Virus record (IMG/VR): IMGVR_UViG_3300017978_000297
Span: 1 to 22,512 of that record
Direction: 5' to 3' (one strand)
DNA length: 22,512 nucleotides
DNA from: a virus
Shown in pieces: positions 10,567-22,385 of the stretch. The translations under genes and the position numbers were made by a program. Numbering within the stretch: position 1 is the stretch's first letter; the number at the start of each line of letters is the position of its first letter. The notes under the pieces were generated by a model. That model was not told the DNA's origin. It worked only from the letters and a program-made list of their open reading frames with translations, and made no database searches.

Positions 10567-13500
10567 TTAGCAAGTAGGTCCCCATATAACTCTATGTTCA
10601 CCTCCAAATGCTGTTAATGTTCCGTATACTACGCCTGGACAACTAATCATTGTATCAAAACCAGGATCTAAAAGAATAAAGTTATAGGTACCGTCACAAT
10701 TTTGATATTGTACTTCTACTTGGAATTCAGATTCGTTGATAACGCTAACTTCTCTACAATCACCTATTGGTATTGGGTCGCATATACCATTAGCATTTGC
10801 ATAGTTTTGTCCATCGTTATTAAAGTTTGCATCAGCTATAGCCTCTGCATCTGCTTGTGAAATAGTTGATGTGTATGTGTTACTATACGATACTGAAGTG
10901 CCAGTATAACCAGGTGCACAATCATTTTTAGTAAATGTACCAGATCTCGGTGCTGAATACGTTGTAGGTGGTGTAACTGTACATGTACCGTTGATATTTG
11001 CATAGTTTTGACCATCTGTATTAAAGTTTGCATCAGCTATAGCATTTGCATCTGCTTGTGAAATCATAGATGTGTATGTATGCTCATAAAATACTGAAGA
11101 ACCTATGTAACCAGGATCACAATTATTTCTTGTAAAATTACCAGATCTATATGCTGAATATGAAGTACAAACTGCATTAATAACTTGATATGCTGTACAA
11201 CCAGCTGCATCAGTTACAGTTAAAGAGTATGCTGCGTCTGGCACACCTGTTAAATTTGGTGTAGTTGCTCCATTAGACCATAAATAGGTAAAAGGTGCAG
11301 TACCACCAGATAAAAGAGATGTGATATCGTTTGAATTTGAACCACTACAACCAGCAGATAAATTCAATTGCATTTCTGGTGAATTTGTAATTGACCAAGC
11401 TTGAGATGCAGTTCTACCAGCAGCATCAGTGACTACCACTACATATAAACCAGCAGCAACGTTAGTTATACTAGGTCCAGTTAGAGATGGTTGGTTAACT
11501 CCATCTTTTGTCCATGCGTATGTGTATGGTGAAGTACCTCCTATTGCAGAGATTTCTATATTACCACTAGCACTACCAGCACATGATACTAAATCTGTAG
11601 AAACTGTAATAATTTCTAAAGGAGCAATTGGTGAGAAGTTTAATAATTTAATCAAATCAACTTTAACAGATGCTAATTCACCAATTGGTGCATCATAGAT
11701 TTTTTGTATACGCCAGTATGCATTTTCAACCCAAATAACATCATCAAAAGTGATAGCTGCTAAATCTGTTACATCTAACATAAAATATGCTGTTAGTTTT
11801 CTAGCATTTGGATCATATAAACTATCAATGTAATCCTTCCAATATTTTTCATATACTGAACTACCTAATAAACCATTATAACCAGTGATTGTTTCGCCAT
11901 AATATGGCGCTTCAATTTCCCAGTTTAGGTTTACATCATCAGCAAGCGGTGGCCAATTTTCATGATATGATACAATTGGTGAAACATCGATTTGTTGATT
12001 AGTTTCTAAATGCCATGACACTAGTGATGTGATTAAACCATTATAAAATAATAAACGTGGTTCAACTTCAATAGGAATATGTCTTGTAACATTATCTTTT
12101 GTTTCTTCTTTATGTAAATGTGCTATGATCCAATTATTTGCTGGATCTCCACCTTCTATTTGTTTGATTGGTGTTGAAGCAAAAGGAGATATGTTAGCTC
12201 TTTCACCATCTATTAATTCATTTTGTGAATCATAAATAAAACGACCAAATGTTTCACCAAACGTATCTTTATTTTCTGTGCTCAACACGTCTTTACCTTC
12301 AATATCTGAAAATGTAATAGTTGAAGACTGTGAATAAAAAACTGGTTCGATTGCAATGTCTTTTGTGTAATCTAATTTTGAATTCCAATCAAAAAGATCA
12401 CCTTGACCAATATAAAGATACCATGGTTCAATAGTAAATTGATTAGGTTTTATTAAATCTGGTACCATTACTAATCTAAAACGATTTAGAATAGCTTTGA
12501 TAAAATCAATTTGTTTGATTTTAGAAGACAAAAGATCTGCAACAGTTTCACCACCAGGAGCTTGTGTACAGAAAAACTGACCATTGTATGTTGTGAAATC
12601 TGGTTTTATAGTACCAGCAGCTTCGATAGAACCTCTAATATCGATTTGATCACCTGTTATTAACTGTACAGAAGTTGGTAATGAAATTGAAAGGTTTTGA
12701 TAAACATATTGACTGTTTTGTGCAAAAGTAATTACAGATGTTTGCGCAATCTGCACATTATTTTTAAAAATGTATAATTTACATGTGAAATTACCAGCAG
12801 GACCGTTGTTGGTAAAATTAAAAGTACCACTAGAACTAAAATTATAAAATCCGTTTTGAGGTGCTGTGTATTTTCCATTTTGAGGGTTGTATACGTTATT
12901 AAAATCATTTACTTCAACATCAAATTCAATAATCTCTGGTATACCTTGATTAGATACGAAAGTATTTAATGAAGTGTATGCACTCATAGTATTACCAGCA
13001 CCAACCACTTTAAGTGGAGATGCTTCATTACCAAAAGCTGACAAATAGATTTTTTTAAAAAAAGCAGAGTTTAAAAAATTAGATTGATATGTATAACCAG
13101 TTTGATTAAAAATGGCATCAAAAACAGATTTAACTCTAATCATTGGTCTCAATTGAAAAACTGATAATGGATGTGAGCCTTGTGTAAAATTTTTAGGACC
13201 ATTTAATCTAACCATAGATTGCAATGGGTTTCCGCTATTATCATACGCTACACCAAAATCTATTAAAGGATAAACGATATCACCGTTGAATATACCTGCA
13301 TTTGGATCTAATGGATCAGCATCCCATGAATCAATAATAAGTTGTCTAGATTGCAAGTGTTCATATTGTGATAAATCTAAATTACTCAAATAACCTTGAC
13401 CAACTGCTGATGCAAAGTCTCTAACTTCACCCATAAAAAGAGTTTCATAATCTACTTTGCCAATAGTTTTATCAACTATAACACGTTGTAGTCTAATCTG

Positions 13501-18187: not shown

Positions 18188-18526
18188 TTATTCTTGTGTA
18201 ATATCAAAGTCTTCAGATGGTTGAATCTTTTTACCAAATTCAAATTTGATATCGACCGGGCCACCTTCTGAATTAGTTAAACTGGTTTGAGTTAATTTAG
18301 GTACGAATCTCTCTGAAATTCTAACGATTAAATCAACTGCAGCTTTAGGATCATCAACTGCTATACGATCGATCATAGCACCTAAATTATCCATGCGTTC
18401 TTCTAATAGTAATGCAAAGGCTTCTTTGATTCTTGTCGTAACTTTATTTGGAGTACCTTTACTTCTACCTGGTCCAGATCCATGTTCAGCATTCCATTTT
18501 TGTATATTATTATTTGACGTGTGCAT
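18188..18526 (-). CDS. Putative terminase small subunit (DUF5681-like basic N-terminus)
   Basis: It lies immediately upstream of terL with a 3-nt gap. The motif GSGPGRSKGTPNKVT followed by a helical body is common in small-terminase-like proteins. The call is positional. Confidence 0.5.
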   Translation of the reverse strand: MHTSNNNIQKWNAEHGSGPGRSKGTPNKVTTRIKEAFALLLEERMDNLGAMIDRIAVDDPKAAVDLIVRISERFVPKLTQTSLTNSEGGPVDIKFEFGKKIQPSEDFDITQE

Positions 18527-18729: not shown

Positions 18730-19260
18730 TTAATAATTTGATAGGATCCACTCTCTCATTTCATTAACTGCTGTAGAGATTGAGGTTCGAGCTATGCCTG
18801 TTTGGCGTGCTAATTCTGAATAATTTGGTGTCTCAAGATATAATTTAAACAGTTGAGCACGATACCAAAGTGCTGGATCCTTTGATGATAAACCAACGTT
18901 AAGTGCAGTTTCACATCTTTCAATTGTAATATCTAAATCATGATCGTATTGATCACGTGGAATATTATCGTGGTTACTGGTTAACCCAACCATTCTGCCT
19001 TTTTCTCTATAAATGGTATGATACTCACTTGTCGAAGATCTGTAAGCATTCATCATTGTTCTAACTATAAACCATCTAGCGCCACCGTCTTGAACTATGG
19101 CTTCTCTATTTTTATGCACCAAAAAGACCTCGATCACATAATGTGCAAGGTCTTCTGAGTTTTTAGAGCCAGCAATATTAATGGCCCATGATATTATGTC
19201 TTTATAATTCTGTTCTATCCACTGATTGGCTGTCATTAGCTTGATATGCCTCGTATGCAA
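18730..19260 (-). CDS. Sigma-70 family (ECF-like) RNA polymerase sigma factor
   Basis: Region-2-like: SEDLAHYVIEVFLVHK ... ARWFIVRTMMNAYRS. Region-4 HTH: RAQLFKLYLETPNYSELARQTGIARTSISTAVNEMREWI. The start could instead be the Met at 19236. Confidence 0.6.
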   Translation of the reverse strand: MHTRHIKLMTANQWIEQNYKDIISWAINIAGSKNSEDLAHYVIEVFLVHKNREAIVQDGGARWFIVRTMMNAYRSSTSEYHTIYREKGRMVGLTSNHDNIPRDQYDHDLDITIERCETALNVGLSSKDPALWYRAQLFKLYLETPNYSELARQTGIARTSISTAVNEMREWILSNY

Positions 19261-20071: not shown

Positions 20072-20308
20072 TTAGAAGTCGTCTTCGAAGTAATTCCTAA
20101 AATCTTTGAGTACTATAGCAAACTCATAGTGTTGATCCTCAATGGTTTGTTCAAATAACATATCATAAATCTCTCTTTGCGACATGTCATACGCTAAAGC
20201 TTCATTATTAAATAAAGCATAAAGGGCAAAGAATATTTGTTCTCTGTCCTTTATGTCCATATTTAAATATTCTTGATACGTAAATTCAAAATCAAATTGA
20301 TCTACCAT
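20072..20308 (-). CDS. Hypothetical small acidic protein, paralog of 19675..19944
   Basis: See the paralog entry. 78 aa, overlapping the upstream gene by 17 nt. Confidence 0.5.
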   Translation of the reverse strand: MVDQFDFEFTYQEYLNMDIKDREQIFFALYALFNNEALAYDMSQREIYDMLFEQTIEDQHYEFAIVLKDFRNYFEDDF

Positions 20309-20984
20309 CCTCTTTTGGTTTTATTACTTTATTATAATACCATTCTTTTTTCTTTTGTAATTGGCGCTCTCTGTTTTTTTCATACCATTCTCTGGCTTGT
20401 TGCTGTTTTAAACTTTTAGGTTTAGGTTCAGCTTTTGGTTTTTTAGGTTTATCTACCATACTGTGTGAGATATGTCGTTTTGTAAACACATCATTGTAGA
20501 TAGGTGCTAAAATATGGGTTACAGAAATCTTTGAAGACTTGTTATAACTTTTTGAATTTGCAGGTCTAATGATTGCAATCTCTGTAATTTCTTGTGTCTC
20601 ATCAACATTAGCTAATCTGCCTAGTAAATATGACCATATAAGGGCAGCTTCTTGTGATAGATCGTATTCTATACACTCAGTATAAATTGATCTTCTTCTG
20701 ACGTCTCCCATGTGTTCTGCTGCACAACGTAGAGTTACTTTGCCATCTACACCTCTAATAGTTTCAATCAAACCTAATTCTTTTAACTTCTTGGTCTCTT
20801 GAAATGCTTTGCCTTGTGGTGCATTGTAGTTAATTGTATCGATATCGTCGGTGTACATTTCAAAGTAATGATCTGGGCCATAAATAGCTGCAAACTTTGT
20901 TAATAAACCTATTAATAAAACTTGGCCTTCTTTGGGGTTGGTTGAAAGCCATTGGGAATAACTTGATGGTATGTATAGTTTCAT
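20292..20984 (-). CDS. wHTH-containing protein with a Lys/Pro-rich basic C-terminus; replication- or regulation-associated by inference
   Basis: QGKAFQETKKLKELGLIETIRGVDGKVTL looks like an HTH plus wing. The C-terminus is KPKKPKAEPKPKSLKQQQAREWYEKNRERQLQKKKEWY. It sits in the early/replication block. Confidence 0.45.
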   Translation of the reverse strand: MKLYIPSSYSQWLSTNPKEGQVLLIGLLTKFAAIYGPDHYFEMYTDDIDTINYNAPQGKAFQETKKLKELGLIETIRGVDGKVTLRCAAEHMGDVRRRSIYTECIEYDLSQEAALIWSYLLGRLANVDETQEITEIAIIRPANSKSYNKSSKISVTHILAPIYNDVFTKRHISHSMVDKPKKPKAEPKPKSLKQQQAREWYEKNRERQLQKKKEWYYNKVIKPKEDGRSI

Positions 20985-20986
20985 TT

Positions 20987-21352
20987 TTATTTATGTGTTT
21001 TAGACCAAGTTAAATTATCTACGTGATTGTTTTCTCTGTTACCGTCTATGTGTTTAACAAATCTGCAGTTATTTGGGTTTTCTAAAAAGTTTAGGGCTAC
21101 AAGACGATTAACGTATTCACCAGTTGGAATACCTAGCATTTTAGGAGATCCTGGTTTACCTTTCCAAAATTGGTTAACTTCTCTTTCACTAATCAAAGAC
21201 ATATCATCTCTGTAGTGTTTTAGGATTACTCTACCATGATCTGATATTAACCACTCTGATATCCCTACATATTCAGTCTTTGTGCCATTACTTTGTGGTA
21301 TTCTATAACCATAGGGTTTCTTTTTAAAGACTTTAAATTGTTCTGCTTTCAT
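20987..21352 (-). CDS. Free-standing HNH endonuclease
   Basis: VKHIDGNRENNHVDNLTWS is an HNH_3-type core. The upstream motif WLISDHGRV is NUMOD4-like. Confidence 0.75.
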   Translation of the reverse strand: MKAEQFKVFKKKPYGYRIPQSNGTKTEYVGISEWLISDHGRVILKHYRDDMSLISEREVNQFWKGKPGSPKMLGIPTGEYVNRLVALNFLENPNNCRFVKHIDGNRENNHVDNLTWSKTHK

Positions 21353-21491: not shown

Positions 21492-21558
21492 GTCCTCTGG
21501 GGATATACCTTTTTGTCCCAAAGGATATACCTTTTAGTCCCAAGGGATATACCTTTTA
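21492..21558. promoter_or_regulatory. Three tandem iterons of about 22 bp (core GGATATACCTTTT); candidate replication origin or operator array
   Basis: Copies are gtcctctggGGATATACCTTTTt (21492..21514), gtcccaaaGGATATACCTTTTa (21515..21536) and gtcccaagGGATATACCTTTTa (21537..21558). Cores start at 21501, 21523 and 21545, a 22-nt phasing. A very AT-rich tract of about 100 nt lies on the right side. Confidence 0.6.
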
Positions 21559-21689: not shown

Positions 21690-22385
21690 CTATAGGTCTA
21701 AAGTTTGTAACCAAGCATCTAGTTCTTCTGGCGTAGGGTCGTCTTTTAAATCAATATCGTTATTTGGTCTTTTATAATTTAAAGGTGTTAAATCATATTC
21801 AACGTCTATATCATTTAATGAAGAAAAATCAATAGACGTTTCTTCGTCTAGCTCTTTAATTCTTTCTTTATTATTTTCTTTATGTTTATTTAATTTCTTT
21901 ATATGTTTACCAGGGGTATCAGCTTTGTGCTCCCCGTTATCAGCTTTGTGCTCCCCGTTATCAGGTTTGTGCTCCCCGTTATCAGGTTTGTTGCTCTCTG
22001 TTATCAGGTTTTCATCAACTAACATGTTCTCTTGGTTATCAGCTTTGTGCTCCCCGTTATCAGGTTTGTAATCAGTAATAGCAGTAAAAGACAATGTAAA
22101 TTTATTATTTTTACTACCAGCTTTATTATTAGAATCTGGTATTATAATGCCATTTTTTGTTAATACTTTAAATTGTTTACATATTCCCATTCTACTAGCA
22201 TTCATTTTGTTTGCGTATGTTTCGTGTTTCCATGTAATAGAGCCATTCATTCTAATATCGTTCATCATTAAAGATACTAATATTTTTTGAAAATCAGATA
22301 AATTGCTTCTAGTTATAAATGGATAAAGCGGAGCATATTCTCCTTCATCCATTAGTAATTGTATAAATTCTTGATTTCGTGTCAT
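21690..22385 (-). CDS. Replication-initiator-like protein (lambda O-like layout): N-terminal wHTH, central heptapeptide repeats, acidic C-terminus
   Basis: The N-terminus, LSDFQKILVSLMMNDIRMNGSITWKHETYANKMNASRMGICKQFKVLTKNGIII, follows the Phage_rep_O-type wHTH pattern. The centre is KPDNGEHKADNQ...KPDNGEHKPDNGEHKADNGEHKAD. It is adjacent to the iteron-bearing intergenic region. Confidence 0.5.
   Translation of the reverse strand: MTRNQEFIQLLMDEGEYAPLYPFITRSNLSDFQKILVSLMMNDIRMNGSITWKHETYANKMNASRMGICKQFKVLTKNGIIIPDSNNKAGSKNNKFTLSFTAITDYKPDNGEHKADNQENMLVDENLITESNKPDNGEHKPDNGEHKADNGEHKADTPGKHIKKLNKHKENNKERIKELDEETSIDFSSLNDIDVEYDLTPLNYKRPNNDIDLKDDPTPEELDAWLQTLDL
21917..22073 (-). repeat. In-frame 21-bp tandem repeats inside the initiator-like gene
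   Basis: Exact copies of tatcagctttgtgctccccgt lie at 21917..21937, 21938..21958 and 22037..22057. A one-substitution copy is at 21959..21979 and a degenerate copy at 21980..22000. Partial copies are at 22001..22013 and 22058..22073. Confidence 0.9.

Follow-up and report, generated by a model that had tools for sequence, protein, structure and literature searches.

Introduction

In bacteriophage lambda, the replication origin is placed centrally in the gene of the initiator, with the iterons followed by an AT-rich tract; Shiga toxin (Stx) phages have six iterons versus four in lambda, and the two extra copies add 13 residues to the protein (PMC7466680). In plasmid pSK41, the N-terminal domain of Rep binds four Rep boxes located centrally in the rep gene, the linker encoded by the origin is dispensable and the C-terminal domain binds host DnaG; in pPR9, the N-terminal domain and the origin have been swapped as a module (PMC5703833). 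Here we analyse a 22,512-nt stretch of viral DNA (IMG/VR record IMGVR_UViG_3300017978_000297, positions 1 to 22,512; referred to as the window), in which the gene of a putative replication initiator of 231 residues (21690..22385, minus strand), recognised from its open reading frame (ORF), its homologs and structure models, contains seven direct repeats (21915..22073, minus strand), delimited by repeat searches and by family-wide conservation of AACCTG. The array is probably an iteron-type replication origin embedded in the gene of its own putative initiator. The protein family appears to be previously undescribed, albeit of an already known design and not a new principle.

Results

Seven phased direct repeats in the linker-coding part of the gene

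Three exact copies of the 21-mer TATCAGCTTTGTGCTCCCCGT are found at 21917, 21938 and 22037 (0 expected in shuffles), and a copy with one substitution (C to G) starts at 21959. A degenerate copy at 21980-22001 measures 22 nt owing to a one-base insertion, and partial copies occupy 22002-22011 and 22058-22073. Tandem Repeats Finder returned 21917-22011 with a period of 21, 4.5 copies and 94% matches. The core GTTATCAG is found six times in the 22.5-kb window (0.79 expected), always inside 21936-22063, starting on the plus strand at 21936, 21957, 21978, 22000, 22035 and 22056; a seventh core, the variant GGTATCAG, starts at 21915 on the same strand. Successive cores are spaced by 21, 21, 21, 22, 35 and 21 nt. 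On the coding strand the core reads (A)A(C/G)CTGATA(A/C)C. All copies share one orientation, none lies beyond the stretch that codes for the linker, and the 8-mer core is present nowhere else in the genome. An inverted-repeat search detected no dyad within the units, which are asymmetric direct repeats. For an iteron array we looked for at least three helix-phased direct repeats of ~17-23 bp; the window has seven, mostly 21 nt apart.

The repeats cover residues 107-160 of the 231, in a region with a predicted local distance difference test (pLDDT) score below 50. Units in frame are AAA CCT GAT AAC GGG GAG CAC (KPDNGEH) or AAA GCT ... (KADNGEH), and the well-kept units differ solely by CCT versus GCT (Pro/Ala). 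A first-pass annotation of the window had listed three exact 21-mers, one single-substitution copy, one degenerate copy and two partial copies, with GCT to CCT as the only difference among the well-preserved ones. All of these copies could be located, and reading the codons gave the same single difference. Its further claim of a period of exactly seven codons, yielding DNGEHK(A/P) heptapeptides, holds for the in-frame units and fails for one copy at gene nucleotides 375-386, where AAC CTG ATA ACA reads N-L-I-T. Because of this out-of-frame copy, the array is not purely a heptapeptide repeat.

Conservation of the repeats at the DNA level

The comparison set comprised 25 related metagenomic loci; codon conservation was scored over 14 close full loci and the heptads were compared over 15 close homologs. 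Tandem heptads lie at the same place in all 15 close homologs, and relatives carry 4-9 direct copies per locus, 21-26 nt apart and limited to the linker region. The heptad peptide differs completely from one relative to another (DNGEHKA, DNQEHKA, DNGVHKP, VTGESKP, GNGETQH, VTSQSKP, VNSKPKP, ETSRPKP, VKIETKP). By contrast, the DNA consensus of the unit shows no variation in the 14 loci over positions 2-7 (AACCTG) or at position 10, two third-codon positions included, and the synonymous sites of the core are invariant although the N-terminal domains of these loci are only 45-70% identical. The core proline is encoded by CCT in 14/14 loci, other prolines of the unit being mostly CCA, and the residue preceding it varies (K/Q/E) with A as the third base throughout. 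The N-terminal domain served as the control: synonymous variation occurs there in 25 of the 30 invariant-residue columns (P19, for example, is CCC, CCT, CCA or CCG). In the iteron and AT-box region, all 11 such columns use a single codon in 14/14 loci, including the minority codons ATA (Ile) and AAG (Lys).

The motif also moves between reading frames. In four loci (L005, L006, L009 and L011), 'TCK' peptides upstream of the in-frame units are encoded by AA ACC TGT AAA, which is AACCTGTAAA in another frame, and L012 has an out-of-frame N-L-K copy. L018 carries AAACCTGTATCAC four times; owing to the 22-nt spacing the copies fall in all three frames, encoding ETCIT, TNLYH, EPVSP and QTCIT with no peptide repeat. 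L015, with four copies at 23 nt, has no peptide repeat either. L014 and L025 contain ACCTGTAAA four times at 22, 23 and 22 nt, and the L006-type sequence is AACCTGTAAAG.

Near-identical proteins differ in copy number by whole units (P0005 versus P0007, P0006 versus P0008), and only two differences, both in the array, separate the window protein from its 99% relative P0001. These whole-unit and array-located changes indicate slippage or gene conversion on top of constraint. The first-pass annotation had invoked DNA-level constraint or very recent slippage, had proposed to look for copy-number variation among relatives and had named a conserved heptapeptide with freely varying synonymous sites as the pattern that would speak for a purely protein-level repeat. 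Both constraint and slippage find support here, in the invariant synonymous core sites and the whole-unit changes, respectively; copy number does vary, by whole units; and the pattern across relatives is the opposite of a conserved peptide with free synonymous sites.

In two short relatives the repeats lie outside the gene. P0041 (113 residues) and P0043 (117 residues) consist of the N-terminal domain only, and each is encoded directly upstream of a gene for a DnaB-type (DnaB_C) helicase. The repeats of such N-domain-only relatives are non-coding DNA, located at or right after the stop codon. In L023, a run of five direct repeats of 22 nt, (T/A)A(A/C)CTATGACACCGATGG, opens at the stop codon and is followed by ~150 nt of 76% AT and then dnaB; in L021, ~3.7 copies of a 22-nt GGTTATACC... 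repeat are followed by 81% AT DNA and then dnaB. Both loci show the classical succession from initiator through iterons and AT-rich region to helicase, and they have the domain and a related core in common with the window family.

Near-identity of the units within one genome, shifts of copy number by whole units between close relatives and the predicted disorder of the region would all suit a purely protein-level, low-complexity linker that has been homogenised by recent replication slippage and whose DNA plays no role in cis. Such a linker is hard to reconcile with a peptide that is unconserved between relatives while the DNA core is conserved, with synonymous core sites that stay fixed among diverged proteins, with out-of-frame motifs and the two loci devoid of any peptide repeat, or with the non-coding state of the equivalent repeats in L021 and L023. 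We rejected it on the out-of-frame and non-coding copies and consider it hardly credible. As judged from the alignments, the conserved entity is the DNA and not the peptide, and the heptapeptide DNGEHK(A/P) arises as a side effect of translating the proposed origin.

A fixed box and an AT-rich tract adjoin the array

A CATATAA box (TTATATG on the plus strand; 21899..21905, minus strand) is defined by its fixed distance from the array across the family, exactly 18 nt past the CCTG of the last iteron (past its CTG-containing core in the window). The 21-nt subfamily translates the box as His-Ile-Lys and the 22/23-nt subfamily as Thr-Tyr-Asn, and the codons CAT, ATA, AAG and AAA of the box region are invariant in 14/14 loci. 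The 45 nt after CATATAA are 76-87% AT across the family and 87% AT in the window. An AT-rich low-stability tract (21853..21909, minus strand), which encodes the Lys/Asn/Glu-rich peptide HIKKLNKHKENNKERIKE, is a candidate DNA-unwinding element by its AT content, stability and invariant synonymous sites. Within it, the 40-mer 21869-21909 is 90% AT, is the least stable 40-mer of the gene by nearest-neighbour free energy and reaches the 99.8th percentile of the whole genome for instability. An adjacent AT-rich, easily melted region, as is expected next to iterons, is present in the window and conserved in relatives. No DnaA boxes stand out: matches number four in the window versus 7.8 expected, none of them near the array.

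A small palindrome, TAGACGTTTCTTCGTCTA (21833..21850), comes directly after the AT-rich tract and may or may not belong to the origin. It recalls the palindrome that follows the AT-rich region of ori-lambda.

The box also marks a change in pairwise identity. L010 and L005 are 97-100% identical over the N-terminal domain and the iterons and 63-83% identical thereafter; against L008, L011 or L002, L010 shows 40-90% identity upstream of the CATATAA box and 97-100% from the box on. This mosaic pattern indicates that the DNA-binding domain and the iterons travel together, with a breakpoint where the iterons meet the AT box. The residues in the first turn of the recognition helix change along with the variable iteron half (RMGICKQ with GATAAC, RQVIMKL with GAAACA, RQSIFNN with GTAAAG), and invariant helix-turn-helix and wing residues go with the invariant AACCTG, both associations being confounded by phylogeny.

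In the mosaic formed by L002, L005, L008, L010 and L011, different N-domain/iteron modules are joined to near-identical C-terminal halves and downstream DNA.

A second set of repeats lies outside the gene. Three copies of GGGATATACCTTTT at exactly 22-nt spacing occupy 21500-21557, inside the AT-rich 337 nt that separate the initiator gene from an HNH endonuclease gene, and GGATATACC has no exact occurrence in the genome beyond this set. The repeat is absent from all 26 related loci, on which ground it was rejected as a conserved element and as the true origin. These copies could be an operator or could have come along with the HNH gene.

The encoded protein is a predicted winged-helix initiator with a disordered tail

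The protein is laid out as an N-terminal winged helix, a disordered linker encoded by the repeats, an acidic tail and a C-terminal helix. The predicted N-terminal winged-helix DNA-binding domain (residues 1-110; 22056..22385, minus strand) was delimited from AlphaFold2, Foldseek and invariant columns. AlphaFold2 modelled these residues as a winged helix-turn-helix (pLDDT 91.6, predicted template modelling score (pTM) 0.81), with helices at residues 31-47, 54-60 and 65-77, the last being the recognition helix, and a beta-wing at 81-98. Wing residues N87, K88, G90, K92 and N94 are invariant across the family. Residues 112-211, comprising the repeats, a Lys-rich stretch and the acidic tail, are disordered in the model. 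A C-terminal amphipathic helix (residues 219-228, EELDAWLQTL; 21702..21731, minus strand) was recognised from the model and from the conserved ending; its pLDDT is above that of the acidic tail, and the ending (F/W)L..LDI is family-wide. The helix may serve to dock a replication protein of the host.

The top Foldseek matches of the N-terminal domain in the Protein Data Bank (PDB) are 5kbj, 4pql and 4pt7 (staphylococcal RepA_N N-terminal domain) and 2v79 (DnaD N-terminal domain), with a TM-score (TMq) of 0.56-0.60, a root-mean-square deviation (rmsd) of 3.6-4.0 Å, 113-115 columns, 14-16% identity and an E-value of only ~3e-3. One of the RepA_N entries is a complex with iteron DNA. MarR-type regulators fit the model more poorly (TMq ~0.45, rmsd 7-8 Å). 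The placement of the repeats between an N-terminal winged helix-turn-helix and an acidic tail, and next to an AT-rich region, had been proposed before on the letters alone; the structure models show the former and the tract 21853-21909 provides the latter. Nor does the domain appear to fall into an unrelated, non-replication family, which had been named as a possible objection, its best structural matches being initiator domains of RepA_N and DnaD.

Sequence profiles were less specific. Close family members match generic winged-helix models only (HTH_Crp_2, HTH_11, MarR_2, CodY), and when PDB sequences were searched with a profile, the matches were weak and again to generic winged helices. HTH_36 is weakly matched by 5 of the 28 close members (best E 0.0024), the window protein itself having no match. 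A search of 1.84 billion representatives with the N-domain profile recovered 61 clusters. Among the 31 distant ones, HTH_36 is matched by 11 (best 1.7e-28), RepL by seven (2.5e-8), DnaD_N by six (2.3e-12), Phage_rep_O by four and RP-C by three. The HTH_36, DnaD_N and RepL matches exceed the Pfam cut-offs, and the best Phage_rep_O match (1.4e-5, 25.9 bits) lies below the 28.7-bit cut-off. Members at middle distance have the same layout with other heptads (QTCSSEP, TDNDCRN, TGLAGTK, KKFETTx) and retain the HI(K/D) box and the ...LDI ending.

With generic winged-helix regulator families as the only sequence matches of the N-terminal domain, and with the L021 and L023 repeats located upstream of dnaB, the same protein might instead be a transcription regulator, the repeats serving auto-repression or, in the short relatives, as the operator of the helicase gene. 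However, the sites in the window family lie 300-470 nt inside the gene with no gene start after them, and four to nine phased direct repeats plus a conserved AT-rich tract are typical of an origin and not of an operator. Structure comparison and distant homology both point to replication initiators, and a sigma-70-type promoter scan of the region, for a promoter type that may not be that of the host, stayed at chance level. We regard regulation as an unlikely explanation of the repeats.

Genome context and gene neighbourhood

The window begins and ends with the same 46 nt, indicating a circular contig and a complete genome of ~22,466 bp. All of its genes are coded on the minus strand. The gene content is that of a tailed phage, with a large terminase, a portal, a protease, a tape measure, a collagen-like fibre and a 1068-residue protein with SprB/DUF5977 repeats. 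The latter suggests a Bacteroidota host, which is the probable assignment. Profile scans of the proteins of the complete genome found no polymerase, helicase, primase or integrase; neither a replication gene other than the initiator-like gene nor any lysogeny gene was found in it.

A genome of ~22.5 kb is very small for a tailed phage.

The initiator-like gene had no match in 50,697 phage records (megablast and tblastn) and no relatives among IMG/VR viral contigs or in 185,579 bacterial and archaeal genomes; its relatives come exclusively from marine metagenomes. The large terminase (TerL) of the window is at most ~31% identical to those of cultured phages. The lack of relatives in bacterial and archaeal genomes gives no sign of a plasmid or prophage lifestyle. 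This bears on another function of such arrays. Centromere-binding proteins also bind phased direct repeats, and a winged-helix protein with such an array could mark a centromere-like partition or genome-maintenance site, as in plasmid prophages. The complete genome contains no recognisable ParA/ParM-type ATPase, integrase or lysogeny genes, the cellular genomes hold no relatives, and the adjacent AT-rich tract and the linkage to dnaB fit an origin better, making a partition site very improbable.

The gene order bears on a packaging function. An N-terminal helix-turn-helix is found in small terminases, whose genes often contain the pac site, and an array present once in the genome would be in keeping with a small terminase subunit encoding its pac site. 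Against this, the gene lies 3.5 kb and eight ORFs from terL, and a different small gene, of 112 residues (18188-18526), sits directly upstream of terL in the window and is kept there in L012, L017 and L025; its homologs in L019 and L025 match DUF5681, and it is likely to be the small terminase subunit. The putative initiator has no predicted oligomerisation domain, everything after residue 112 being disordered, and its short relatives pair with dnaB, not with terL. The packaging reading was rejected on synteny and predicted structure, and we consider it highly unlikely.

Two HNH endonuclease genes (20987-21352 and 284-742), one with PHROG HNH matches and the other with NUMOD4 and HNH_3, are probably mobile homing-type genes near the origin. 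The gene at 20987-21352 is directly downstream of the initiator gene, and its L019 homolog occupies the same place. Ahead of the initiator gene, in the window as in L012, comes an ORF of 88 residues (in the window 265 to 1, with its stop codon across the junction). Two conserved proteins, of 230 residues (20292-20984; weak Rrf2-like helix-turn-helix match, homolog in L019) and 176 residues (18730-19260; weak C-terminal HTH match, homologs in L012, L017, L019 and L025), are both encoded in the interval from the initiator gene to terL. Each is a possible regulator or helicase-loading partner; their database matches are uninformative, and no helicase loader can be named from them.

Repeats occur in two structural genes as well. 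A 201-nt tandem duplication (1.8 copies, 82% matches) lies at 10795-11160 inside the gene of the 1068-residue protein, probably a protein of repeat domains for host recognition or decoration. Several periodic repeats of 9 nt and 18 nt at 1957-2240, within the collagen-like tail fibre gene (1259-2506), correspond to Gly-X-Y triplets.

Discussion

If the array functions as an origin, copies of the N-terminal domain would bind the phased iterons, spaced by about two turns of the helix, along one of its faces. Conserved residues of the helix-turn-helix and of the wing may read the AACCTG half of each iteron, and the variable start of the recognition helix the lineage-specific half. The resulting nucleoprotein complex would strain and then open the adjacent AT-rich tract, and the acidic tail and the C-terminal helix could recruit the helicase, loader or primase of the host. 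Recruitment of host replication proteins is suggested by the 22.5-kb genome, which encodes no recognisable helicase, loader or primase of its own.

Several observations weigh against this assignment. Of the seven window copies, three have AAGCTG in place of AACCTG, which is conserved family-wide. No Pfam or PHROG match of the window protein rises above threshold, its best PHROG (phrog_4617, 'replication initiation protein', E = 0.12) falling below it, and the Foldseek E-values are modest, with generic winged-helix regulators matching too. GC skew falls monotonically across the window and gives no origin position; as all genes share one strand, it is uninformative. The loci compared are not independent, some having recombined halves in common, and the conservation of the AT box is overstated as a result. 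The intergenic repeats at 21500-21557 could be an alternative or additional origin.

It is possible, though less likely than not, that coding over the origin is secondary, an idea that is less secure than the origin assignment itself. The reading frame of an ancestor resembling the N-domain-only relatives, whose iterons and AT tract lay next to a phage dnaB gene, might have been extended through the non-coding iterons to a short C-terminal docking helix, by which the helicase or primase of the host would be recruited. Were this so, a tailed phage of 22.5 kb could replicate with a single replication gene, and the free drift of the linker peptide, even across frames, would be explained. The origin would also double as a recombination junction at which modules of DNA specificity (N-terminal domain and iterons) are shuffled against modules of host recruitment (the tail).

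The locus supplies a well-delimited and solid candidate origin, with its putative initiator, for very small uncultured marine phages that have neither cultured relatives nor recognisable replication genes. Its cis element, read in one, two or three frames or placed outside the gene, separates DNA-level from protein-level selection unusually cleanly. The design of an origin within the initiator gene, with modular exchange, as found in lambdoid phages and Gram-positive RepA_N plasmids, extends to a new family from marine metagenomes. In the annotation of phage proteins, a heptad or low-complexity linker that follows a winged helix can serve as a sign of an origin.

Comparison with known systems

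Among DnaD and HTH_36 proteins, the N-terminal domain of DnaD is matched in fold by the model of the window protein with TMq 0.60 (2v79). In contrast to the window protein, DnaD is a host primosome protein without an iteron array of its own. Iteron plasmids (pPS10, RK2, F, R6K) likewise have several helix-phased direct repeats of ~20 bp and an adjacent AT-rich unwinding element, and their repeats are bound by a cognate winged-helix Rep encoded nearby. Unlike in the window, their iterons normally lie outside rep, their Rep combines two winged-helix domains and they commonly have DnaA boxes, whereas the array in the window has none close by.

The resemblance to lambda lies in the arrangement: iterons and an AT-rich tract sit in the middle of the initiator gene, and the number of iterons varies between relatives, adding residues to the protein. 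In lambda the N-terminal domain binds the iterons and the host replisome is used, as we propose for the window phage. The differences are several. Lambda iterons are dyad-symmetric and bound by dimers; those of the window are asymmetric direct repeats, which counts against the likeness. No P-like helicase loader was identified in the window, and its protein ends in a tail instead of the folded C-terminal domain of lambda O. Phage_rep_O (PF04492) gave no match at E<=1 for the window protein and is absent from the 25 most-matched families of the 28 close members. Of the lambda O/ori-type layout claimed by the first-pass annotation, the iterons and AT tract inside the gene stand; membership of the lambda O family by sequence does not, and the symmetry of the iterons differs.

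RepA_N plasmids differ from the window in other respects. Their C-terminal domain is a five-helix globular one, in place of a disordered acidic tail and one short helix (219-228), and they are Firmicute plasmids with four repeats, as opposed to a tailed phage from a marine metagenome with seven iterons. Pfam scans covering the window protein, 28 close members and 31 distant ones gave no RepA_N (PF06970) match. Other features are alike. Like pSK41 Rep and pTZ2162 RepA, the window protein is predicted to start with a winged helix of ~110-120 residues, and direct repeats located centrally in its own gene encode the linker. The C-terminal part of RepA_N initiators is host-specific and recruits a host protein (DnaG), a role comparable to that proposed for the tail here. 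The top structural matches of its N-terminal domain (5kbj, 4pql, 4pt7), at modest E-values, belong to RepA_N proteins, and the swapping of N-domain/origin modules in these plasmids has its counterpart in the mosaic pattern of the window family. RepA_N plasmids such as pSK41 are at least as close an analogue of this locus as lambda is.

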